64,000 bases of DNA from assembly GCA_946631895.1 (NCBI GenBank), contig CAMPAN010000002.1, forward strand, positions 14,946-78,945. The letters are read 5' to 3'. A program made the translations under genes and the position numbers. This document shows positions 21,703 through 41,772 of this stretch, one piece after another. A model generated the notes under the pieces. The model saw nothing but the letters and a program-made list of their open reading frames with translations, did not search any database and was not told the DNA's origin. This DNA comes from an uncultured Clostridia bacterium. GTDB lineage: Bacteria; Bacillota; Clostridia; Christensenellales; CAG-138. Positions within the stretch are counted from its first letter, which is position 1; every line of letters starts with the position of its first letter.

Positions 21703-22878
21703 ATGCAAACCGAAGAAGAACTGCTGACACAGTATACGCATTCAGCGGAGGAGTTTCCGGTCCTTGCCGAGCAGACGCACAAGGTGCTTCGCAACGGTAA
21801 AATCGTTAACGAGAGGATCAACATCAACGAAAACATCATGCACTATCTGCAGGATACTGCACAGCTGATATCGGTGATCGACGGCCGATTGGGCTCCGGC
21901 GTTCCGTATGACCATGTCATTTACTTGGACAAATCGGCAAGACCGGTTTCGTGGCTCGTCAATCTGTTCTGGAACGACTTTGCCGAAAAAGACAAAGCCG
22001 GTGTTCCTGTCAAGCGACCCCGACACTCCTATATCAATATCGACAGGGCGCCGTGGTTCAGATACGTCGGCGTCAATGTGGACGACGACGGCAGGCAAAA
22101 GGACAACGGCGAGCTTGCCACCTACATCGATTTCAGGAACAATATTCAGAATCTGTCGAAGAGACATCTCGCCGAAATCAGGGCGCTGTATATCCCCGGA
22201 GGGATCGAGGAGGAAAGCGATGACTGGGTGATGCGTCAACCGACCGTCCTTGATGCAAAGCGTGTGCTGATCGTGGATGAAGTCTCCAGAACAGGCTCGA
22301 CGCTGGATATCGCCAAGCATCTGTTCCGGCTTGCTATCCCGGATGCAGCCGTGATTGACGGCTCCTATTTTTGGAATCCGGGCGAATCGTCGCTCAAAAT
22401 CGGCGAGGAGTTTGCGCTGACGAGCCTGCCTGTTTGGTACGATCCGACCACCCTGACCGGTCGGGGAATCGGCGCTCCCGACCCGTATTACTATAGAAAG
22501 CAATATGAAAAATACTTGACGCAGGATAACGGTTCCCATCCTATAGATTTTCGGAAGCTGCGGACCCATGCCTTCTCCGCCTCGGTTTTCAGCGCACCGC
22601 TCTTGGATGACAACGGCGAAGTCATCGACTTGGCGGTCGAGGGCAAAACAAGAAAGCTGTGCAAGGATCTAAGGCGGTTATATGATGCGTATCAAACCGG
22701 GCGTATCTTTTTCACACCTCCTATGAAATGGTTCGGTTTCGATGATTTCAATGCGATGATTACGAATCAGGGCGTTATGCTTTTACCATTGGGCGCTTCG
22801 GAAAAGGAACGAGAAAGGATTCTGAAATCGCCGTTGTTCTATTTGAATTTTGTCACAAAGTTGAAGAGTATAAACTGA
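21703..22878 (+). CDS. Phosphoribosyltransferase (PRTase)-domain protein
   Basis: The second in-frame ATG has a GGGAGG RBS 10 nt upstream. The PRPP-loop-like motif is RVLIVDEVSRTGSTLDIA. Confidence 0.6.
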   Translation: MQTEEELLTQYTHSAEEFPVLAEQTHKVLRNGKIVNERININENIMHYLQDTAQLISVIDGRLGSGVPYDHVIYLDKSARPVSWLVNLFWNDFAEKDKAGVPVKRPRHSYINIDRAPWFRYVGVNVDDDGRQKDNGELATYIDFRNNIQNLSKRHLAEIRALYIPGGIEEESDDWVMRQPTVLDAKRVLIVDEVSRTGSTLDIAKHLFRLAIPDAAVIDGSYFWNPGESSLKIGEEFALTSLPVWYDPTTLTGRGIGAPDPYYYRKQYEKYLTQDNGSHPIDFRKLRTHAFSASVFSAPLLDDNGEVIDLAVEGKTRKLCKDLRRLYDAYQTGRIFFTPPMKWFGFDDFNAMITNQGVMLLPLGASEKERERILKSPLFYLNFVTKLKSIN

Positions 22879-32191: not shown

Positions 32192-32266
32192 ATCCTTACA
32201 GTATGTTACGGCGAACGGCGATTGCAGGGCAGGAAACGTCCGTGCCGCCGGAAAGGATGTACATCC

Positions 32267-33277
32267 ATGGAAAAAGAGTCCGGATCGAAAAAAATCGCGC
32301 TGCTACGCATTCTGCAGATTTTGCAGGAGGAGACCGACGAAGCGCATCCGCTGACGCAGGAACAGATCGGGGAGATCCTGCGCGCAAAGTACGGCATCGT
32401 ACTGGAGCGCAAGGCGATCGCCGACAATCTGCGTCTGCTCGAGAAAGCGGGATACGACGTCGTATCGGAGCGAAGAAGAGGCAGTTATTTTGAACACGAA
32501 TTCGACTATACCGAGCTTCCCGTGCTGATCGACGCCGTGATGAACAGCCGGTATATCGCCAAAGGATACGCGGAAGATCTGGTCAAAAAGCTCAAAAGGC
32601 TGTCCAGTAAGCATTTTCACACTGCGGCAGGCCATATCGTGTCCGTCGGGGATAAGCACAGGACCGGCAATAAGGAAGTGTTTCTGAACCTGGAGCTGCT
32701 CGACGAGGCGATCGAAAACAAACGGCAGGTCGAGTTTTCCTATCGACAGCTGGGGTTCGGTCTGAAGCCGAAGAGCAGGTCCCGGCGCGTCAGTCCGTAC
32801 CGGCTGATCCTGTTTCAGGGGCAATACTACGTGCTGGGAAAAGAACACCGGAAATACGGTTACCAACCGGGCGTACGCGCCTTTCAGCTGGATCATATCA
32901 CAAAGGTCGCAATCCTCGAACAAAACACCGATTCGATCGAACCGGAAGATAAGGACAGTCTGAACGGCATCGAGATGCTGTCAATGTTTTACCCGGCTGC
33001 ACCGCTGCGCAAGGAGAAGCCCGAGCGGATCGAGCTGCTTTTGCGGGGGCCCGATGCGGTCGAGGCGTTTGTCGAGCAGTTCGGCGACTGTACCATGACC
33101 AGGCTGGACGATCCGAACCGATACATGGTAAAGGTCGAGGTCGAGGCGAATCCGACTGCGGTGGAGCAATGGGTGCTGCTGCATCTTTTCTACGCAAGGA
33201 TCCTTGCTCCGAGTTATCTGAAGGAATACTTCAATTATACATTACAGAGCGGGCTGATCCCGTTCCTGAAAGAATAA
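32267..33277 (+). CDS. HTH + WYL-domain transcriptional regulator
   Basis: N-terminal wHTH-like KIALLRILQILQEETDEAHPLTQEQIGEIL. The central WYL-like strand motif is VSPYRLILFQGQYYVLG. Confidence 0.65.
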   Translation: MEKESGSKKIALLRILQILQEETDEAHPLTQEQIGEILRAKYGIVLERKAIADNLRLLEKAGYDVVSERRRGSYFEHEFDYTELPVLIDAVMNSRYIAKGYAEDLVKKLKRLSSKHFHTAAGHIVSVGDKHRTGNKEVFLNLELLDEAIENKRQVEFSYRQLGFGLKPKSRSRRVSPYRLILFQGQYYVLGKEHRKYGYQPGVRAFQLDHITKVAILEQNTDSIEPEDKDSLNGIEMLSMFYPAAPLRKEKPERIELLLRGPDAVEAFVEQFGDCTMTRLDDPNRYMVKVEVEANPTAVEQWVLLHLFYARILAPSYLKEYFNYTLQSGLIPFLKE

Positions 33278-33329
33278 TCCGGGTCGAAAACAGGACGCGT
33301 CCTGACGGGCGCGTTCTTTTTATGTCCTT

Positions 33330-33416
33330 TTTTTCGTGCATAAGTCCGGAAACGGCGGTTTTTTGAAAATCGACCGGAAAAAACTCTGGATTTTCAAAAA
33401 ATCTGGTGTATATTCG
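33330..33416 (+). promoter_or_regulatory. Promoter/operator module, copy A (upstream of 33578)
   Basis: TCGTGCATAA ... TTTTTTGAAAATCGACCGGAAAAAAC ... TGGATT ... extended -10 TGTATATT (33407-33414). The architecture matches copies B and C. Confidence 0.45.
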
Positions 33417-33500
33417 ACAGGCAAAGGGAAAAAGGAGTGAAAAATGAGGATGTGGTATTTGTATGCGACCGTGCCGCATGCCGGGAATCGGGAAGGATGC

Positions 33501-33530
33501 GCGGATCCCGGACGGGACGATCCGCTTTTT
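33501..33530 (+). terminator. Leader hairpin + T-run (possible attenuator) between module A and 33578
   Basis: GCGGATC (33501-33507) / GATCCGC (33519-33525) followed by TTTTT. It lies within the ~160-nt leader. Confidence 0.35.
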
Positions 33531-33577
33531 CGGACAGGAGATCCGGTAAGATGTATTTGAAAGAGAGGGATTAAGAA

Positions 33578-34063
33578 ATGAAGAGGATATTTTTGGATAT
33601 GGACGGCGTGCTTTGCGAGTACCGCGCCGACGCAACGCTGGAGGACATGGAGCGCGACGGGTATTTTTTGGCGCTTCGTCCCAGAACGGACATGGTGGAC
33701 GCCGTGCGGAGTCTTGTCAAGAGTGGTAATTATGAGGTGTTCGTGCTGTCCGCCGTGCTTCCGCAGAAGGCGGAGGCGTCCGTGAACGAAAAGAACGACT
33801 GGCTCGACCGGTACCTTCCCGAGATCGATGCGGCGCACCGGCTGTTTCCGCTGTGCGGCACGAACAAGGCGGACGCGGTTCCGGATTTCTGCACGGACGA
33901 CATTCTGTTTGACGATCACTCCCCGAACCTCGAACGCTGGATCCAAAGCGGCGGCAGAGGCGTCAAGATCCTGAACGAGATCAACGGCGTTACGGGCAGC
34001 TTTCAAAAGGGTCCGCGCCTTCGGGTGAAAAGCCTCAACGACCTGCTGCTTGCGGTTACGTAA
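33578..34063 (+). CDS. HAD-superfamily 5'(3')-deoxyribonucleotidase-like (NT5C family)
   Basis: IFLDMDGVLCEY (DxDG nucleophile motif) and a late ILFDDHSPN motif. The size (~160 aa) is typical of the family. Confidence 0.6.
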   Translation: MKRIFLDMDGVLCEYRADATLEDMERDGYFLALRPRTDMVDAVRSLVKSGNYEVFVLSAVLPQKAEASVNEKNDWLDRYLPEIDAAHRLFPLCGTNKADAVPDFCTDDILFDDHSPNLERWIQSGGRGVKILNEINGVTGSFQKGPRLRVKSLNDLLLAVT

Positions 34064-34079
34064 AGAAAGGAGACGAAAG

Positions 34080-36089
34080 ATGCAGTTTTTCAGATATGAA
34101 GGATTTTTCCCGGAGGACGCCGAACAGCAGTACAGCGCCCGCAGTATGCGTGATCTTCTCAAAAAGCAGGCGATGAAGATCGACGCGTTTCTGCAGCCGA
34201 TCCGCCGCGAGGCGTTTCTTTGCGTCGGGGGTGTCGACGAGGACGGCGTCACGGTCGTTGCGCTTCTCAAAACGGGCGACGACGTGCAGCGGCTGATCGG
34301 GACGTATCTCGAAATGCTTGAATTCCCCGTTGAGAACGAACGCCTGGAGGAGATCACGCTGCACGTGGCTAAGGGCTTGCTCCAGAACGCGGCGCGCAGC
34401 GGATTCATCGAGGACGACGAGGACGTCCTCGAGCGGTTCGAGCTGCACCGGCTGAACGCCCGCTTCGGCAAGGGCATTCAGTTTTCCGAAAAGATGATCG
34501 AGCCGCGGATGAAGGACGCGATCTATCGGGAGGCGCAGCGGTATCTGTCCAACGAGACGCTGCTGCCTGAGCTCGACCGCATCTATGCGGGAAAGAGCGA
34601 CTCCCCGGCGACCGGACATCCCGTGCATTATCTCATCCGGACCGATTCCGCCGCGACCCGCAGGGGGCTCTGCGAGCTTCTGACGGAAGCGCTGTATGCA
34701 AATAAGCGCATTGCAAGCAGACGCTATTGCGCGATCGGTCTGAAGCCCGACGGCGATGTCTATCCGCCCGCGTACGATTCGCTGTACAAAAGCTGCATCG
34801 GCGGCGCGCTGGTCGTGCAGTTTGCCGGCAACGAGAATCCGGAGGACGAATACGCGTCCGAAAACCGGGAGATGCTCACGCTGCTTGCCAAGGAGATGAA
34901 GCGCTACCGGAACGAGGTGCTGACGATCTTCTGCCTCGAACGCGCATGCAATACGTCCAGGGCGATCCTTTATGAAAACCTCGGCACGGTCAGCATGATC
35001 GAGCTTGCGGAGGAGCTGGTCGACGCGTCGCGCGCGACGGAGCATCTCATAATGCTGGCGGCGGAAAACAACGTCAAGGCGGACGACGCCCTGCTTTCGA
35101 AAATCAAACCGGACAAGGGCTATCTTGCGCCGGAACTAAGCGAACTGTTTTCGGAATGGTACAACGCGCTTTTGAAAACCGACGTCTATCCGCAGTACCG
35201 CGAAATCGCGAGCGCCAAGGTCGAGGCGGTGAAGGAAGCGCCGAGGGGCTCGGCGTATGACGAGCTCACGGAGATGATCGGGCTTTCGGAAGCGAAACGC
35301 ATCATCAAAACGGCGATCGATTACCGAAAAGCGCAGAAGCTGTTTTCGGAAAAGGGCATGAAGGCGGAGCAGCTGTCCATGCACATGGTCTTTACGGGCA
35401 ACCCCGGCACGGCAAAGACGACGGTCGCGCGGCTCTTTGCGCGGATCATGCGGGAAAACGATCTGCTTGCGAAAGGTCACATCATCGAACTCGGGCGCGG
35501 GGATCTGGTCGGCAAATACGTCGGCTGGACCGCGCCGACGATCCAGAAGAGATTTCGCGAGGCAAAGGGCGGCGTGCTCTTCATCGACGAAGCGTATTCG
35601 CTCGTGGACGACCGGTCCGGCTCCTACGGGGACGAGGCGATCAACACGATCGTGCAGGAGATGGAGAATCACCGCGACGAGGTGGTCGTTATCTTTGCGG
35701 GATACCCCGACAAGATGGAGTGGTTTCTCAATAAAAACCCCGGTCTGCGCTCCCGCATCGCGTTTCACGTGCCGTTTGCGGATTACAGCACCGAGGAGCT
35801 TCAAAGGATCACGGCGCTGATCGCAAAAAAGAAGGGACTGACGCTGACCGACGGGGCGAAGGAAAAGCTCGAAGCCGTCTTCGACGCCGCGCGCACGGAA
35901 CCCGATTTCGGCAACGGCAGGTTCGTCCGCACCTTGATGGAGAAGGCGAAGATGGCGCAGGCGGCGCGTCTGCTTTCCGCGGGCTACGACGCGGTGAACG
36001 AATCGGATATTGCGACGATCACGGAAGCGGATATCATACAGATCGCGCCGAAGCCGAAAGCGGCGCCGAAGCGTGCGATCGGGTTCTGA
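34080..36089 (+). CDS. SpoVK/CbbX-type AAA+ ATPase with ~400-aa N-terminal extension
   Basis: ATG with an AAGGAG RBS. Walker A is FTGNPGTAKTTVARL and Walker B is GGVLFIDEAYSL. Also present: VIFAGYPDKM, NPGLRSRI (sensor-2 region) and FGNGRFVR. Confidence 0.8.
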   Translation: MQFFRYEGFFPEDAEQQYSARSMRDLLKKQAMKIDAFLQPIRREAFLCVGGVDEDGVTVVALLKTGDDVQRLIGTYLEMLEFPVENERLEEITLHVAKGLLQNAARSGFIEDDEDVLERFELHRLNARFGKGIQFSEKMIEPRMKDAIYREAQRYLSNETLLPELDRIYAGKSDSPATGHPVHYLIRTDSAATRRGLCELLTEALYANKRIASRRYCAIGLKPDGDVYPPAYDSLYKSCIGGALVVQFAGNENPEDEYASENREMLTLLAKEMKRYRNEVLTIFCLERACNTSRAILYENLGTVSMIELAEELVDASRATEHLIMLAAENNVKADDALLSKIKPDKGYLAPELSELFSEWYNALLKTDVYPQYREIASAKVEAVKEAPRGSAYDELTEMIGLSEAKRIIKTAIDYRKAQKLFSEKGMKAEQLSMHMVFTGNPGTAKTTVARLFARIMRENDLLAKGHIIELGRGDLVGKYVGWTAPTIQKRFREAKGGVLFIDEAYSLVDDRSGSYGDEAINTIVQEMENHRDEVVVIFAGYPDKMEWFLNKNPGLRSRIAFHVPFADYSTEELQRITALIAKKKGLTLTDGAKEKLEAVFDAARTEPDFGNGRFVRTLMEKAKMAQAARLLSAGYDAVNESDIATITEADIIQIAPKPKAAPKRAIGF

Positions 36090-36152: not shown

Positions 36153-36229
36153 ATTTTCGTACATAAAAAGTTTTCGCAAAAATCGATGAAAAAAAGTATG
36201 GATTTATGGTTTTTCAGTGTGTATACTGA
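36153..36229 (+). promoter_or_regulatory. Promoter/operator module, copy B (upstream of 36263)
   Basis: TCGTACATAA (36157-36166) ... TTTTCGCAAAAATCGATGAAAAAAAG ... TGGATT ... TGTATACT (36220-36227). Confidence 0.45.
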
Positions 36230-36262: not shown

Positions 36263-37021
36263 ATGAAGAATGTTGAAAAAGTGAAGAATGAATTTGGGTT
36301 TGATTTTTCCGTATGCCAAAAAATGAGAGAGATAAGCCCCGCCGCGTACATCGCGTGGATGTTTGATCGCACCGAAAGCGACGGCACCCTTGTCGTTCCC
36401 GACTGGCCCGAGGACGGCAGCAGGAAGCCGGACAGCTTTTGCTTCTGCGAGATGCAGTGGACGGAAGCAGACCGTGACCGTGTGATCGCGGACGTCGAAG
36501 CGCTGATCGACATGCTTTCCGAGATCGCAAAAACGTATCGCGGTCTCAGCGCCGAAGACCGGAAAAAATGCGAGGATTTCCTCAGCGGGGATCTCCGTGC
36601 GGTCTGGGAAAAGTACCTCCGCCCGCTCAATCCTGACGTCTTTGACAGGGAGGTCATCCTCGATCTCTCCGAACGTCTTGAATGCATTCGGGAACGGGAG
36701 AAGCTGGAGCGCAAGGCAGGGCTCGGAACGCCTCTCACCGAAGCGGAGGAAGACAGTCTTCGCATCGTGGAAGACGTCACGCTTGAACCCGGCGAGCGCG
36801 AGGTCATCGACGCGTACAACCGCTTCGTGGAGGATCGTGCAGCTGAGCGCGTCGGCAAGGGACCCTTTGCGTGTCCGTTCGTGATCGCTGCATGGCGTCT
36901 CTGGCGTCTGATGACGTTCGGCGCCGAATTTATGATTCCCTACGAAGCCATGCGCCTTGCGCACACGATGACGCTCCATACCTTTGCAAAGAGCGCCGAC
37001 CGGTTCGAGCCCGTCAACTGA
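36263..37021 (+). CDS. Unknown-family protein, tandem paralog 1 of 4
   Basis: AAGGAG RBS. Blocks shared with the next three genes: SP.AYI.WMF.RTE..GTL.VP.W, W(T)EADRDR, LSEIAK.Y..LS and LS..L...W..YLRP. Confidence 0.6.
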   Translation: MKNVEKVKNEFGFDFSVCQKMREISPAAYIAWMFDRTESDGTLVVPDWPEDGSRKPDSFCFCEMQWTEADRDRVIADVEALIDMLSEIAKTYRGLSAEDRKKCEDFLSGDLRAVWEKYLRPLNPDVFDREVILDLSERLECIREREKLERKAGLGTPLTEAEEDSLRIVEDVTLEPGEREVIDAYNRFVEDRAAERVGKGPFACPFVIAAWRLWRLMTFGAEFMIPYEAMRLAHTMTLHTFAKSADRFEPVN

Positions 37022-37065
37022 CGGGCTCCGGACTATCGAAAAAATCATAGAAAGGAACCACGGAA

Positions 37066-37824
37066 ATGAATCACAGCACGAATGAGAAAAAGAATACAAA
37101 CTGGTTTGACGGTTCCGCGTACGACGGCGTCTGCAGCATGACGCCCGAAACCTATATCGACCGGATGTTTGCCCGCACCGAAAGCGGCGGCACGCTGATC
37201 GTTCCCGATTGGTCCGACGAGGGACCGCATCATTTCGAGCGCTGGCTTGTCTGCCGGATGTGTTGGACGGAAGACGAACGCGACGGCGCAAAGACGCTTT
37301 ATCAGACGATCTCGGACGCGCTTTCCGAAATCGCAAAGGTATATAAACGTCTGTCCGACGACGAGGGGGAGAATGCGAAGGTGCTTTCTCCCGCGCTCCT
37401 GGAGGATTGGCGCCGGTACGTCGCCGCGCCGGACATGCGCGATTTCGACGTTCGCCGGATCCGCGACATCCGCGAGCGTGCCGAGATCATCGAACGGTAT
37501 CAGCAGACGAAGATGCATAAGAAGCTCGGCTTGCCGCTCACGAAAGCCGGAGAAGCGTTCATGAGCGAGAACGCGGACGTCCGTCTGGAACCCGGCGAAT
37601 TTGACCTTCTCGACGCATACGAGACGCGTACGGAAGCCATTGCCTTTGAGCGCGTCGGCGAGGGTCCGATGGCGGAAACGCTGCTTCGCTGCACAAAGGA
37701 GCTCTGCCGCATGACGGCGCAGCACGCGCCGGATCTCTGCATCCGCTACGGCAGAATACGCCTTGCGCAGGCGCTGACCCTGCACACGATCGCCGCGTCT
37801 GTCGACCGGGTCGCGCTCGCCTGA
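37066..37824 (+). CDS. Unknown-family protein, tandem paralog 2 of 4
   Basis: Same conserved blocks (MTPETYIDRMFARTESGGTLIVPDW; WTEDERD; LSEIAKVYKRLSDDEGENAKVLSPALLEDWRRYV). Confidence 0.6.
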   Translation: MNHSTNEKKNTNWFDGSAYDGVCSMTPETYIDRMFARTESGGTLIVPDWSDEGPHHFERWLVCRMCWTEDERDGAKTLYQTISDALSEIAKVYKRLSDDEGENAKVLSPALLEDWRRYVAAPDMRDFDVRRIRDIRERAEIIERYQQTKMHKKLGLPLTKAGEAFMSENADVRLEPGEFDLLDAYETRTEAIAFERVGEGPMAETLLRCTKELCRMTAQHAPDLCIRYGRIRLAQALTLHTIAASVDRVALA

Positions 37825-37847
37825 TCTTTCTGAAGGAGGAAACCGTT

Positions 37848-38597
37848 ATGGAAAAACCCGCAAAAAAAACCCGTTCCGAAGCGATCCGCGCGCTCGGCGA
37901 TATGACGCCTTCCGCGTACATTGCCCGGATGTATGAACAGACCGACGGCGAGAACATGCTCGTCGTCCCGATGTGGGGCGCAAACGCATACAGCCATCCC
38001 GTGCCGCGCCTTTGCTTCCGCAACCGGATGCGCTGGACCGAGGCGGACCGCGACCGCATGATGGTCGTCTGCAACGTGCAGTTCGGCGCGCTGAAGGAGC
38101 TCAGTAAGCTGCGCGGCCGGCTTTCCGATTCCGAGGAGGAGAACGCAAAGATCCTCTCTCCCGATCTGCTGGACGTCTGGCGCGCCTATCTCCGTCCGTT
38201 CGACTGCTCCGCGTTCGATCGGGAACGGATCAAAGACATCGCCGCACGCACGGGGATCGTGCAGGAGATCGAGGATATCCGGCTTAGAACGGAACTCGGA
38301 CACAGAATAAACGATCTCGATTTCGATTTTCTGCGCGAAAACGAAGACGTCTCCGTCGAGCCGGACGAGGCGGCGTACTATGCTGCGTATGAAAACGCAC
38401 GCAAAGCGCAGGCGGAAGCGCGCGTGGGCAAAAGCCCGCTTGCGTCAGAGCTTGTGGCGTGCGCGAAAAACCTGTACCGCCTGCTTTGCGAAGGCGCGAA
38501 GGAAGACGCCGTCCGGTATGAAGCGATCCGCTTTGCCCAGACGATGGTGCTGCATTCCTGTTCCGAGACGTTTTCATCGACAGAACGCGCGGCATAA
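37848..38597 (+). CDS. Unknown-family protein, tandem paralog 3 of 4
   Basis: Same blocks (MTPSAYIARMYEQTDGENMLVVPMW; WTEADRDR; LSDSEEENAKILSPDLLDVWRAYLRP). Confidence 0.6.
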   Translation: MEKPAKKTRSEAIRALGDMTPSAYIARMYEQTDGENMLVVPMWGANAYSHPVPRLCFRNRMRWTEADRDRMMVVCNVQFGALKELSKLRGRLSDSEEENAKILSPDLLDVWRAYLRPFDCSAFDRERIKDIAARTGIVQEIEDIRLRTELGHRINDLDFDFLRENEDVSVEPDEAAYYAAYENARKAQAEARVGKSPLASELVACAKNLYRLLCEGAKEDAVRYEAIRFAQTMVLHSCSETFSSTERAA

Positions 38598-38636
38598 AGC
38601 GGCGGCCGCGCTTCTGCCGCAGCATCTTACGTACGA

Positions 38637-38713
38637 AAAATCGTACATAAATCGGTTTTCGCGAAATTGCCGGAAAAAACCATTACATTCGGGAATCGAA
38701 CGTTGTATACTTG
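38637..38713 (+). promoter_or_regulatory. Promoter/operator module, copy C (upstream of 38747)
   Basis: TCGTACATAA (38641-38650) ... TTTTCGCGAAATTGCCGGAAAAAAC ... TTACAT, 17 nt, then TGTATACT (38704-38711). The 63-nt spacing matches copy B. Confidence 0.45.
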
Positions 38714-38746
38714 CCGTACGAAAATCAAAAAAAGGAGATGAGTTGC

Positions 38747-39592
38747 ATGATAGGCTATGAAAGAGACGAAGATGTCATTCTGGACAATGAGTTTATCAAT
38801 GTTCGAACCCCTGCGGAGTATATCGAATTGATGTTTGAACGTACAAGGAAAGACGGTCTTTTGATCGAGCCGTTTTTCGGTGAAAAAGGCAGACTTCCCG
38901 GAACGGAATCCGGTGACAGATTTACCAAGGATCTCCGGTTTCAGCTCAGATGCATCATGAACTGGTCTCAAGCAGACTGTGCCCGTGTAAAAACGGAGTT
39001 TGAAGCACTCTATTGTGCACTTTCCGAGATCGCGAAACGATCCGACGGCACGACCGGTCTGGAGGAAGGGATCGAAAAACGGCTTTCTCCCGATCTTCTG
39101 AAGGTCTGGAACACCTATCTTCGCAGATTCCGGACGGAGTCCTTTGATCTCGGCAGGATCCTGGATATCGAAAACCGGTACGCTGCTTACAGGGAGACTG
39201 CGCTCGATGCATATGAAACAGCAAAGGACCTGCCCCTCGATCAATACATTGAACGGATGACGGAAGTGCTATCGGACGATCCCATGAGCGAGGAAGAAGA
39301 GAATGACCTGTTTGCATACGGAAAAATGCTTCGGGAGCAGGCGGCGCAGCGTCTGGGGAAAACACACATGGCATATGAGCTTGTGACACGTTCACAGCGT
39401 CTTTGTACCTATCTGTCTCTCCGGGCTCCCGAGCGTATCATTCAATATGAAGCACGTCGTGTTGCACAGGCGTTTGCCGTTTGTTCCTGTGCCGGGAAAT
39501 TTGAGGTGAGGCGGATCAATCCCGTTGCCGGGGAGGTTTTCACCTTTTCGGGCGTAGGAACGCTGAAGTACTTTCCGATACCGCCGGTATAA
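38747..39592 (+). CDS. Unknown-family protein, tandem paralog 4 of 4 (most divergent)
   Basis: The second ATG is 9 nt after GGAG. Blocks: RTPAEYIELMFERTRKDGLLIEP; WSQADCAR; LSEIAKRSDG; LSPDLLKVWNTYLRRF. Confidence 0.55.
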   Translation: MIGYERDEDVILDNEFINVRTPAEYIELMFERTRKDGLLIEPFFGEKGRLPGTESGDRFTKDLRFQLRCIMNWSQADCARVKTEFEALYCALSEIAKRSDGTTGLEEGIEKRLSPDLLKVWNTYLRRFRTESFDLGRILDIENRYAAYRETALDAYETAKDLPLDQYIERMTEVLSDDPMSEEEENDLFAYGKMLREQAAQRLGKTHMAYELVTRSQRLCTYLSLRAPERIIQYEARRVAQAFAVCSCAGKFEVRRINPVAGEVFTFSGVGTLKYFPIPPV

Positions 39593-39612: not shown

Positions 39613-41712
39613 ATGGAGAAAGAACTGTCTGTCAACAGAAACAACGCGGCGCAGAAGGTCCGCGACCGCTGCAAAGCGGCGCTCGAGGAGCGGTACGGCA
39701 GCCGCCCGGACGAACGGATCATCGAACGGCTGATCGAGGAGGATCGCGAGATCGAATTTGCGGAGGACGGCGAGAACCGGTGGCGGATGCTTCTGTCTGC
39801 GGCGAACGTTGCTGACGCGTGCCGCGCGCACGGCGTCCCGGTCTTTGCGCGGGGAAACCTCGGCGCTTCCTTCTTCGCGTATCTGCTCGGCGTTTCGGAA
39901 TGCAATCCGCTGCCGCCGCACACCGTTTGCCCAGTCTGCAAGACCGTGGAATTTGTCGATCCGAACGAGTTCCCGTCCGGCTTTGATCTGATGCGCTGCG
40001 GCGCCGCGCAGAAGACGTGCCCGACCTGCGGCGCGTCGCTTCTCGGCGACGGCTGCAACGTCCCCGCCGCGTCGCTGTTTGAGACCTGCAGGGGACCGCT
40101 GATCCCGGAGCTGGACGTGCCGGCGGAGGCGCTGCCGCTGATCCGCGAACGGACCGGCATGCCGCTGCATACGCTTCCGCTCACCATGCGCCCGAACAAA
40201 GCGCTGTCTGTGCTTTGGCGGATGCATGACGCATTAAAAGAGCCGTCAAAGCCCTTTGTTCCGGACGAGCAGGATGTGCGCCTTTTTGTCGGCGAGGGGA
40301 TGAACGGGTCTTTCGGGATCGGAAAGAGCCTGTTTCCGAAGGAGCTTCCGCCCACCGCGACGCCGGAAACCTTTTCCGAGCTTCTGACGCTCTATGGTCT
40401 TGTGTACGGCACGGGCACGATGGAGTTGAACAAGGAAAGGCTGTCCGATCCGGAGCATCCGCTTTCCGGCGTGATCGCATTCCGCGAGGATCTGCAGGAC
40501 CGGTTCGTGTCGCACGGCATGCCGTACCCGGCGGCGTACTTCCTTGCGGAGTTCATCGGAAAGGGAAAGGCGAAGAAGCATCCGGATTCCGACGCGCTTC
40601 GGTCGCTCTCTGAGCACGGTTATACGGCGAAAGCGGTCGAAGAACTGAAAACGATCGGGCGACTGTTCCCGAAGGCGCACGCGGTCAACCATCTGCTGCT
40701 GATGCTGCGCCTGCAGCGCGCGCGGGAGACGCATCCGGTCGAGTATTTCGCCGCGCAGCTGACGGTCCGTGCCCCAAAGGAGCCGGACGGCGCGTGCTTT
40801 ACGACGGAGCGCAAGCAGCTTGCCGATGCGATCGATTCCTGCGGCGACCCGGACGAAAAGGCGTATCTCGAAGCCGTGCTCGGCGCGCGTGACCGCGAGA
40901 TCGAATTCCTGCCCGCCGTTTCAGGACTGTCCGATCCCGCCGCGTTCCTGCCGGGCAAGGGCACGATCCGTCTGCCGCTGCGGCTATCCGGCGCGATCCG
41001 GATCGAGCGTCCGTTTTTCCGCCAGATCGCAGAGTTTACATGTCTGCGCCCGGACCCGGAGGAGCGGCAGACGCCGGCGTTTCCGATGGACGCGCTGTTT
41101 GAGACGCTGTCCGAAGGGCTGCATCTGATCGGCGGCAGACCCGGCATGGGTAAATCGACGCTGCTTCAGCACCTTGCCGCCGAGCTTGCCCGAAGCGGAA
41201 CGCCCGTGTATTACTACTCGCAGGAGCGCCTGAACGTGCGCTGCGCAAGGCGTTTGATGGCGCTGCTTCCGGAGGAGCTTGAGAACGTGCCGGTTTATCT
41301 TGCGGACAGTACTGCGGACCCGGACCTCTTTGCGCTGCTTCGCGCGGCGCGGCGCGAGATTTCAACCGGCGTGCTGATTCTCGACGGGCTGGAGCTCATG
41401 GTCGAAAACCGCAGCCCGTACCCGGCGGCAAATCCTTACAGCGAGGTTCATCTCCGCGAAGCCGCCGCCGCGACGGCGCTTGCGGAATTTGCAAAGCAGT
41501 GTCATCTGCCGGTCCTTGCCGCCGTGCCGCTCTCGCGCGACACCGAGCACCGCACGGACCACCGCCCCAAGCTTTCGGACGTGCGCTATCACCGCCGCTT
41601 TGTCGACGAAGCGGACACGGTCGTGCTGCTCTGGCGGGACAGTTATTACAGCGACGGCGGAGACCCTGCCATGAAATACCGGATCGTAAAGCGCAAAGAT
41701 TCACACGCCTGA
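39613..41712 (+). CDS. Degenerate PolC-type PHP-domain segment fused to DnaB-C/RecA-like ATPase
   Basis: The N-terminal ~430 aa align by eye with the PolC PHP region. Matches: ARGNLGASFFAYLLGVSECNPLPPHTVCPVCKTVEF...SGFDL...CPTCG..LLGDGCNVP vs [44 protein letters not shown].CG....DGHDIP; FIGKGKAKK vs VRKGKG; and LFPKAHAVNHLLLM vs MFPKAHAAAY. The C-terminus has IGGRPGMGKSTLL (Walker A), LILDGLELM, and the DnaB-like RPKLSDVRYHRRFVDEADTVVLLWRDSYY. Confidence 0.7.
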   Translation: MEKELSVNRNNAAQKVRDRCKAALEERYGSRPDERIIERLIEEDREIEFAEDGENRWRMLLSAANVADACRAHGVPVFARGNLGASFFAYLLGVSECNPLPPHTVCPVCKTVEFVDPNEFPSGFDLMRCGAAQKTCPTCGASLLGDGCNVPAASLFETCRGPLIPELDVPAEALPLIRERTGMPLHTLPLTMRPNKALSVLWRMHDALKEPSKPFVPDEQDVRLFVGEGMNGSFGIGKSLFPKELPPTATPETFSELLTLYGLVYGTGTMELNKERLSDPEHPLSGVIAFREDLQDRFVSHGMPYPAAYFLAEFIGKGKAKKHPDSDALRSLSEHGYTAKAVEELKTIGRLFPKAHAVNHLLLMLRLQRARETHPVEYFAAQLTVRAPKEPDGACFTTERKQLADAIDSCGDPDEKAYLEAVLGARDREIEFLPAVSGLSDPAAFLPGKGTIRLPLRLSGAIRIERPFFRQIAEFTCLRPDPEERQTPAFPMDALFETLSEGLHLIGGRPGMGKSTLLQHLAAELARSGTPVYYYSQERLNVRCARRLMALLPEELENVPVYLADSTADPDLFALLRAARREISTGVLILDGLELMVENRSPYPAANPYSEVHLREAAAATALAEFAKQCHLPVLAAVPLSRDTEHRTDHRPKLSDVRYHRRFVDEADTVVLLWRDSYYSDGGDPAMKYRIVKRKDSHA

Positions 41713-41737: not shown

Positions 41738-41772
41738 CATCCGCCCCCTTGCATGAAGGGGGCGGATGTTTT
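41738..41772. terminator. Strong bidirectional hairpin terminator between convergent operons
   Basis: 13-bp stem CATCCGCCCCCTT / AAGGGGGCGGATG with loop GCATG. It is flanked by A-run/T-run (AAAACAG ... TTTTCG). Confidence 0.7.

Follow-up and report, generated by a model that had tools for sequence, protein, structure and literature searches.

A putative thumb-less pseudo-polymerase derived from PolC, fused to a trimmed DnaB-type ATPase, in a rare gene module of an uncultured Clostridia bacterium

The 64,000-nucleotide stretch of DNA analysed here (the window; contig CAMPAN010000002.1 of assembly GCA_946631895.1, a rumen Clostridia genome, positions 14,946 to 78,945) carries at 39613..41712 on the forward strand an open reading frame (ORF) for a 699-amino-acid (aa) protein in which a mini-PolC of palm, zinc finger and fingers is followed by the RecA-type ATPase domain of DnaB helicases (mini-PolC::DnaB_C), as identified from the ORF list, domain matches, a family alignment and the ratio of nonsynonymous to synonymous substitution rates (dN/dS). 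Judged by its sequence, the fusion is an intact and selected gene, predicted to encode a non-catalytic, cut-down PolC copy joined to a trimmed DnaB-helicase ATPase. It appears as a new combination of known domains inside a rare, undescribed module. Relatives are given below as P-numbered proteins and L-numbered loci.

The gene is one intact frame of 699 codons. A Shine-Dalgarno sequence, AAGGAG, lies 7 nt before the ATG, and a strong bidirectional intrinsic terminator with a 13-bp stem including 9 GC pairs (41738..41768, both strands) closes the module. An identical protein (P0001) is present in public metagenome gene catalogues, and DNA of the gene was detected at a k-mer share of 0.4-0.8 in nine or more studies of bovine and gut metagenomes. 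From the frame, the two signals, the catalogue protein and these metagenomes it follows that the gene is not an assembly artefact. Evidence of transcription was weak: contig coverage was thin in runs labelled as metatranscriptomic, and a clear RNA-Seq run gave a single contig of 176 nt. In comparison with P0002, the 82% identical relative at locus L007, dN/dS was 0.236 for the whole gene (dS about 0.5) and 0.25, 0.21 and 0.24 for the palm, fingers and DnaB_C parts, respectively. All three parts of the fusion are under purifying selection, and since the degenerate polymerase part is constrained as strongly as the ATPase, the gene is not a decaying remnant.

The first ~465 aa correspond collinearly to PolC, beginning with the palm and ending at the beta-hairpin that precedes the helix-hairpin-helix (HhH) domain. 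They consist of a palm core without thumb (residues ~1-235, 39613..40317, forward strand), delimited by HMMER and MAFFT alignments to PolC, and of the fingers (FSELLTLYGLVYGTGT, LFPKAHAV) down to the pre-HhH beta-hairpin (residues ~236-465, 40318..41007, forward strand), which align to PolC 1031-1284. The NCBIfam PolC model matched residues 10-160 at model positions 827-960 of 1445 (E=9e-40), with a score of 136 bits against the curated cut-off of 873 for NF001688, which was not reached. In a phmmer search of the PDB, residues 12-169 and 239-388 matched Geobacillus kaustophilus PolC 3f2b (E=9e-32), the second segment being paired with 3f2b 746-893; E. faecium PolC 9qpc was matched as well. Pfam gave a weak DNA_pol3_alpha (palm) match at residues 15-101. 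MAFFT alignment of the family with four PolCs placed the fusion on PolC 697-877 and 980-1284, with the fingers segment 239-388, where the FPKAHA motif is kept, also falling on PolC 1031-1214. In the genome's own PolC (contig C3) the Pfam domains are PHP at 231-577, the DnaQ exonuclease (RNase_T) at 310-463, the palm (DNA_pol3_alpha) at 712-897, the fingers at 990-1139 and HHH_6 at 1247-1331. This domain map together with the MAFFT placement identifies the segment as palm, zinc finger, fingers and pre-HhH hairpin, and not PHP. Scanning the fusion with Pfam, no PHP domain (PF02811) was matched even at E<=1, nor was a DnaQ-type exonuclease (RNase_T).

Conservation within the family is concentrated in a few elements. 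The four zinc-finger cysteines C106, C109, C136 and C139 align to the CPxC...CPxCG of PolC and are invariant, as are an RG-x-LG-[AS]-S motif, a DG and the LFPKAHA block, and the pre-HhH hairpin (R.IEFLPA...SDP..FLPGKGTIRLP) is very conserved. The catalytic strand is altered. The PDIDL of PolC contains the two catalytic aspartates of the polymerase, numbered D972 and D974 in E. faecium PolC (PMC12592400), which fall on the PDID letters given an assumed tag offset of ~22 residues in the 1474-residue 9qpc chain. The corresponding strand of the fusion is ELDV (E166/D168) instead of DIDL, and the family has E-[LIM]-D-V, or T-L-D-V in P0007. HMMER pairs E166 and D168 with the two PolC aspartates, and the MAFFT register is shifted by two; at most two carboxylates remain either way. 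Pairwise local mapping of the catalytic residues gave shifting registers, so that the HMMER and MAFFT alignments were used, and the choice between E-x-D and A/P-x-E is ambiguous. E166-x-D168 keeps two of the three carboxylates in 7/8 family members.

From the DxD strand to the strand with the third catalytic Asp (KLDILG) there are 123 residues in real PolCs, a stretch that holds part of the palm and the whole thumb. About 100 PolC residues (878-979 by MAFFT, inside which a 4-residue aligned block is spurious), thumb included, are lost in the family and a single helix is found instead; the thumb deletion is put at ~100-125 aa. The KLDILG-equivalent strand has no conserved acid (LPLTM in this fusion, FRVRG or IGIHA in the family), and the third Asp is gone. 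The HhH domain and the C-terminal QxSLF clamp-binding motif of PolC are replaced by the ATPase domain, HHH_6 being kept in P0007 only. The base-stacking Tyr of the PolC motif PKAHAxxY (PMC12592400) is likewise not conserved in the family. On these alignments the PolC half is best described as a thumb-less pseudo-polymerase preserving selected PolC surfaces. Lacking PHP, exonuclease, thumb, third Asp, HhH and clamp tail, and with Glu or Thr for the first Asp, the fusion should not polymerise DNA. An AlphaFold2 (AF2) model of the full-length fusion, built from 7 sequences, was of moderate quality (predicted local distance difference test, pLDDT, 61.6); Foldseek with this model found DnaB again, and PolC at rank 20 with a large root-mean-square deviation.

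The original prediction for this gene, made from the letters alone, had proposed a PolC-derived segment fused to a DnaB-C-type ATPase, which is borne out by the phmmer and NCBIfam matches above and by Pfam DnaB_C (E=3.6e-22). Its assignment of the segment to a PHP region with the first strands missing does not hold, as PolC 697-877 and 980-1284 lie outside the PHP domain at 231-577, and its statement that palm and fingers are absent was wrong, these two, without thumb, being what the segment is. The four-Cys zinc finger and the FPKAHA block that it named are there. So are the two substitutions that it pointed out, DGHDIPFETF to DGCNVPAASLF and PDIDLNF to P-ELDVPA, although PDIDL is the polymerase Asp pair and not a set of PHP metal ligands. 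There are no intact PHP metal-binding residues in the fusion, which has no PHP domain, and it is no standard prophage helicase with an unrelated N-domain, the N-domain being related to PolC. The core idea of a replisome-derived pseudo-enzyme with a helicase-type ATPase in a cryptic or mobile element thus survives, with the dead site moved from a PHP phosphoesterase to the polymerase.

The remaining residues, ~466-699 (41008..41709, forward strand), form a linker and a trimmed DnaB_C RecA-type ATPase, as determined from Pfam, NCBIfam and PDB matches and from a DnaB alignment including the genome's own DnaB (contig C34) and other DnaBs. Pfam DnaB_C matched residues 554-682 with 79 bits against a cut-off of 27, in agreement with the DnaB-C-type P-loop domain originally predicted for the C-terminal ~230 aa. 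The curated helicase models were not reached (67 bits against 385 for TIGR00665 and 66 against 499 for TIGR03600, phage_DnaB). The DnaB N-terminal domain PF00772, present in the real DnaBs of the search, was not matched in the fusion by the Pfam scan, again as predicted. Walker A (GGRPGMGKS, 507-515), the catalytic Glu E538 (SLEM in DnaB), the Walker B residue D591 and the Arg finger R658 in RP.LSDVR are kept and are invariant or near-invariant in the family, in which the EAD..LLYRD motif of DnaBs is also conserved. In RecA- and DnaB-family motors the Gln of motif H3 (SQL[SN]R) acts as gamma-phosphate sensor and links ATP hydrolysis to the binding of DNA. This Gln is lost in all core members (SQL to VPL, in VPLSR), ~24 aa after motif H1a are deleted, and the last beta-strands are missing, the C-terminus stopping ~20 aa early in most family members. 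From these residues the DnaB_C half probably hydrolyses ATP, and its action as a processive ring helicase is uncertain.

The family is rare. Among 5.8 billion clustered proteins only seven full-length fusion clusters were found (38-100% identity), and the family alignment has 110 or more invariant columns across 38-82% identity. An exhaustive profile search of 1.84 billion representatives added P0022 (639 aa), the more distant mini-PolC::DnaB_C fusions P0032 and P0100, and the fragment P0038. Two larger metagenome fusions of ~1200 aa have the order PHP-palm-thumb-fingers-HhH::DnaB_C with a complete DnaB_C: P0024 (L022:10001-13657), with an intact DxD...D triad, and P0023 (L032:3644-7237), with a dead palm (AxN). 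P0024 is possibly a live single-chain polymerase-helicase, a candidate on the strength of its intact motifs. Both are preceded by a conserved 135-aa protein that is 49% identical between the two loci. Given P0024 with its intact palm and P0023 with the same architecture and a dead palm, the fusion appears to be a reduced descendant of larger mobile-element PolC-type polymerase::DnaB_C fusions.

Dozens of standalone mini-PolCs of 350-520 aa were also found among the representatives, many of them thumb-less (30-45 aa between the strands) and most with degenerate triads, some being intact (P0045). Three of the thumb-less ones (350-480 aa) have their third Asp only 30-45 aa after the DxD strand: P0045 has the full DxD...D, and P0054 (GxD) and P0140 (NxD) have the second and third Asp only. 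By their motifs such proteins could be active enzymes of the Pol-beta fold. Another standalone mini-PolC, P0021 (440 aa; L017:2273-3595, reverse strand, corresponding to contig C2 2273-3595), is encoded 11 kb upstream of the window on the same contig. It has lost both catalytic Asp (PAVILNC for PDIDLNF), keeps a thumb-like segment, is 37% identical to the palm of the fusion and adjoins a BspA-type LRR_5 protein, DUF3232 and a HerA/TrwB-like ATPase.

No relatives of the fusion were found in 2.9 million IMG/VR viral contigs, and PHROGs profiles matched its DnaB-like half only; a phage origin of the fusion was rejected on these two results. The 185,579 GTDB species genomes held a single relative, apparently frameshifted. 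This copy (L018:2413-4480, in RUG11401, a metagenome-assembled genome of a rumen Clostridiales) is in two overlapping frames of 558 and 303 aa, indicating a frameshift or an assembly error, and an ORF of 669 aa, the size of the module's AAA ATPase described below, lies ~6 kb away on the opposite strand. Relatives were absent from all of 400 other genomes of the order (0/400), including three of the same genus, and literature searches turned up no PolC::DnaB_C fusion, live or dead.

The fusion is the last gene of a co-directional module on the forward strand. It begins with a WYL-domain regulator of 351 aa (32222..33277; Pfam WYL E=7e-12, PADLOC WYL E=2.5e-22) with its own terminator at 33292-33317. 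An NT5C-type 5'(3')-deoxyribonucleotidase of 161 aa follows (33578..34063; phrog_2643 E=6e-15), whose orthologues (PF06941) are 75-86% identical, and then a CbbX/EccA-type AAA ATPase of 669 aa (34080..36089; Pfam AAA and AAA_lid_6, PDB CbbX 3zuh E=1.6e-58) with a ~390-aa N-domain that has no assigned function. For this gene the start at 34080, giving 669 aa as in relatives, is better than the TTG at 34050. A reverse-strand ORF of 385 aa (33320-34477) shares sequence with NT5C and with the beginning of the AAA gene. It has no Pfam match and, the region being GC-rich, is most likely spurious. Between the AAA gene and the fusion lie four tandem, diverged paralogs of one ~250-aa family (36263-39592), paralogs 1-3 (252, 252 and 249 aa) at 36263..38597 and paralog 4 (293 aa) at 38711..39592, all on the forward strand. 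Only 20 nt separate paralog 4 from the fusion, with which it is probably co-transcribed.

The sequence TCGTRCATAA occurs three times in the window against 0.24 expected, each time on the forward strand and upstream of a module unit: copy A (TCGTGCATAA, 33334..33343) before NT5C, copy B (TCGTACATAA, 36157..36166) before paralog 1, followed by GTTTTCGCAAAA and an extended -10 TGTATACT, and copy C (TCGTACATAA, 38641..38650) before paralog 4 and the fusion. Copies B and C share a following GTTTTCGC.AAA box and the extended -10 TGTATACT, and the same box is found upstream of the last paralog in the relative locus L004. The boxes delimit three co-regulated units, NT5C with the CbbX-type AAA, paralogs 1-3, and paralog 4 with the fusion, the fusion being in the third. 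The boxes are likely a WYL operator or promoter, and the WYL protein plausibly controls the three units.

The ~250-aa paralogs had no match in Pfam, PHROGs, PADLOC or a PDB profile search. An AF2 model of a paralog, from 17 sequences, reached a pLDDT of 87 and a predicted template modelling score of 0.81, with mostly long helices and a small sheet, and Foldseek found no match for it in PDB or BFVD; the paralogs may thus have a novel fold, according to this model. Comparison of the window with L007 showed 81-87% identity for NT5C, AAA and the fusion (dS 0.4-0.5) and only 42-48% for the paralogs and the WYL regulator, with dS saturated. Paralog copy number across loci varies from 1 to 7. Within a conserved frame the paralogs form a hypervariable cassette.

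The neighbours of the module in the window are an Hsp70/HerA operon on one side and a TIR-LRR/SLOG operon on the other, a setting that also speaks for the conflict role considered below. The G+C content steps near position 22000 from ~0.40-0.45 (1-22 kb) to ~0.55-0.62 (22-64 kb), which suggests a mosaic of horizontally acquired blocks. The low-G+C part is the Hsp70/HerA operon region and continues upstream to the start of the contig, where a relaxase fragment is found that is 74% identical to the relaxase of L006. A giant protein of more than 1479 aa with two CbbX-type AAA plus AAA_lid_6 units (L017:10507-14943, running into window positions 1-~985) is 34-39% identical to the module's 669-aa AAA ATPase. 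No recombinases were found on the contig, and no Rep, primase or integrase nearby in the window. DUF2779 was not found by tblastn in this genome, which is only 63% complete.

Much of the module recurs with the relatives across deep divergence, the WYL regulator, NT5C and paralogs as constant companions of the fusion and the CbbX-type AAA as a usual one. Loci L004, L006 and L007 hold a WYL-like protein, NT5C, the AAA, 1-7 paralogs and the fusion together, and L025 has WYL, NT5C, one paralog, DUF2779 and the fusion. P0023 adjoins an AAA of the module family (47% identity over the full length), and the neighbours of the distant fusion P0032 are a DnaA/DnaC-like AAA+, a PDDEXK_4 nuclease and a WYL regulator. 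Nucleases of the DUF2779/Cas4-like type are encoded close to the fusion, frequently right next to it, in L001-L008 and L025-L027, and also at the P0024 loci L022-L024. The settings of relatives include a serine recombinase, and SprT-like (ArdC-type) and nuclease genes stand beside relatives on mobile elements. In L025 and L030 the fusion lies in a small cassette amid housekeeping genes, in a chromosomal setting, and gene calling on the fetched contigs (~5-10 kb either side of the fusion) gave neither mobility nor origin-type genes.

The fusion is most likely a non-polymerising motor that would engage DNA or the replisome at replication forks. We tentatively favour, at somewhat short of an even chance, a role in conflict, in which the fusion would be the DNA- or replisome-engaging component of a replication-interference module on mobile elements and islands, because the array is hypervariable, nucleases and a nucleotidase are among the partners, the module is plausibly under WYL control, some cassettes have no mobility genes and both replisome-derived halves are degenerate. 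The WYL regulator would switch the module on via the shared boxes, plausibly when single-stranded DNA (ssDNA) or damaged DNA is sensed, as is the case for other WYL regulators. The ATPase half would then assemble on ssDNA at replication forks, where the dead polymerase half would hold the primer-template junction or 3' end, or dock onto the replisome partners of PolC, and forks of invading, competing or host DNA would be captured or stalled, not copied. The co-inherited CbbX-type AAA remodeller may load or reset the fusion protein, the hypervariable ~250-aa paralogs may tune or target it, and NT5C, joined in relatives by DUF2779 or PDDEXK_4 nucleases, may act on nucleotides and DNA. Narrowed down to WYL-switched immunity or inter-element exclusion, with a fork-poisoning dead polymerase::ATPase armed by a CbbX-type unfoldase and paralogs choosing the foreign replisomes or DNAs, the proposal is rather doubtful.

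Several points weigh against this conflict role and the dead motor that it presupposes. Several relatives stand beside relaxase, NikA, ParM-like (ALP_N) or terminase genes or ImmR/ImmA-like regulators, and these mobile-element neighbours fit a role in element replication or maintenance equally well. E166-x-D168 may allow residual metal or nucleotide binding, and active-site geometry was not taken from the AF2 model because of its only moderate pLDDT. With the H3 Gln and the last strands lost, ring formation and translocation are assumptions. Among the systems of PADLOC-DB 2.0 the module proteins had only generic matches (P-loop mad8 2.5e-6, AAA IetA 1e-5 and the WYL regulator), and a known defence system was rejected on this basis. 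The context as a whole, with WYL, hypervariable array, nuclease and nucleotidase partners and mobile or island settings, fits conflict and element-replication roles alike.

It is quite possible, though we would sooner expect otherwise, that the fusion serves the mobile element as its own replicative helicase or as a helicase scaffold. DnaB_C would then unwind the DNA of the element, for instance once a relaxase has nicked it or at a plasmid or phage-plasmid origin, the dead PolC half would take the place of the DnaB N-domain as docking platform and recruit the host Pol III holoenzyme or an initiator, and the CbbX-type AAA would be the loader. Both halves are replisome-derived, the larger P0024 resembles a live polymerase::helicase with a complete DnaB_C, and the domain order is that of N-terminal-enzyme::DnaB-core fusions such as primase-helicases (PMC4889955). 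The relaxase, NikA, ALP_N, terminase and serine recombinase contexts, the relaxase fragment at the start of the window's own contig and the DnaA/DnaC-like AAA+ adjoining P0032 point the same way, and phage modules for DNA metabolism commonly contain NT5C and Cas4-like nucleases (phrog_2643). Against it stand the loss of the helicase coupling residue (H3 Gln) and of the last strands, the 24-aa deletion, and the loss of the clamp-binding tail and HhH. The zero matches in IMG/VR, the cassettes L025 and L030 and the absence of Rep, primase and integrase nearby and of recombinases on the contig also speak against it, and a hypervariable multi-copy array is unusual in replication modules.

An anti-defence or host-takeover decoy, soaking up host factors or replisome-monitoring sensors or poisoning host PolC or DnaB so that the element monopolises replication resources, is unlikely. 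The surfaces that such a decoy would present are kept, the zinc finger, fingers and pre-HhH hairpin being invariant, relatives lie on mobile elements with SprT-like and nuclease genes, and NT5C is classed as host takeover in PHROGs. The catalytic residues of the ATPase are strictly conserved, however, which a passive decoy would not need, the module also occurs in cassettes of chromosomal settings, and there is no similarity to known anti-defence proteins.

Very unlikely is an enzyme still at work, a thumb-less nucleotidyltransferase of the Pol-beta fold acting through E166/D168 in terminal transfer, nucleotide signalling or priming and coupled to the ATPase. E-x-D does fit the [DE]h[DE]h signature of Pol-beta-like nucleotidyltransferases, the triphosphate-binding RG..G.S motif and LFPKAHA are kept, and some standalone thumb-less mini-PolCs (P0045) have the full DxD...D, whereas in the fusions the third-Asp strand has no conserved acid, P0007 has Thr at the first position, the base-stacking Tyr of PKAHAxxY (PMC12592400) is not conserved and the DNA-binding thumb and HhH are gone. 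A decaying, functionless remnant of a polymerase-helicase gene, as might be read from the multiple losses relative to P0024-type fusions and the split RUG11401 copy, is scarcely credible and already largely refuted by the selection analysis (omega ~0.24 in all three domains), the frame being intact, the invariant columns numerous, the operon conserved with Shine-Dalgarno site and terminator, and the gene seen in nine or more studies of bovine and gut metagenomes.

Taken with the larger fusions, the data point to a reduction series in mobile elements of gut and rumen Clostridia, as read from the protein sequences, from P0024 (probably active) through P0023 (dead palm) and this thumb-less fusion to the standalone mini-PolCs, the members of which are apparently maintained by selection and tied to the same partner genes. 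Proteins of the P0024 type would be of interest as single-chain polymerase-helicases. If the dead polymerase does recognise the fork or the replisome, it would be a new example of a pseudo-enzyme sensor or scaffold, comparable to ImuB, and it could give access to the way in which mobile elements or defence systems distinguish one replisome from another. If the narrower, WYL-switched form of the conflict role is true, recycled parts of the replisome would here have been made into a system of immunity or inter-element exclusion.

Among known systems, the ImuA'-ImuB-DnaE2 mutasome (PMC12926913) resembles the fusion in using a dead polymerase homologue as a scaffold alongside a RecA-fold protein and a polymerase partner of the replicative type. 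It differs in that ImuB is of the Y family and ImuA a separate protein, in being LexA-regulated and chromosomal, and in having no sequence relationship to the fusion. Primase-helicases (T7 gp4, P4 alpha-type; Kazlauskas et al. 2016, PMC4889955) likewise place an N-terminal module related to DNA synthesis on a mobile-element hexameric motor of the DnaB/RecA type, but the N-module of the fusion comes from a C-family polymerase and not from a primase, and is catalytically degenerate. With DnaB helicases (Taq 2Q6T, Bst 2R6A/4ESV and phage SPP1 G40P 3BGW) the fusion shares the RecA-type C-terminal domain with Walker A and B and the catalytic Glu, the RP.LSD[LV]R Arg finger and the EAD..[LF]LYRD motif, whereas it is without the primase-binding N-terminal domain, has VPL for SQL, a ~24-aa deletion and missing terminal strands, and scores only 67 bits with TIGR00665 (385). 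With PolC (3F2B of G. kaustophilus, 9QPC/9QRN of E. faecium) it is collinear from palm start to pre-HhH hairpin (E=9e-32) and shares the RG..G.S, CPxC...CPxCG, DG and FPKAHA motifs, but the N-domains, OB, PHP, DnaQ exonuclease, thumb, HhH and clamp-binding QxSLF tail of PolC are lacking, the catalytic triad is reduced to E-x-D, and 136 bits are reached against the NCBIfam cut-off of 873. P0024 and P0023 have, like the fusion, a PolC part followed by DnaB_C with the junction after the pre-HhH/HhH region, and CbbX-type AAA and DUF2779 partners; they differ in keeping PHP, thumb, HhH and a complete DnaB_C, and P0024 also the full catalytic triad.

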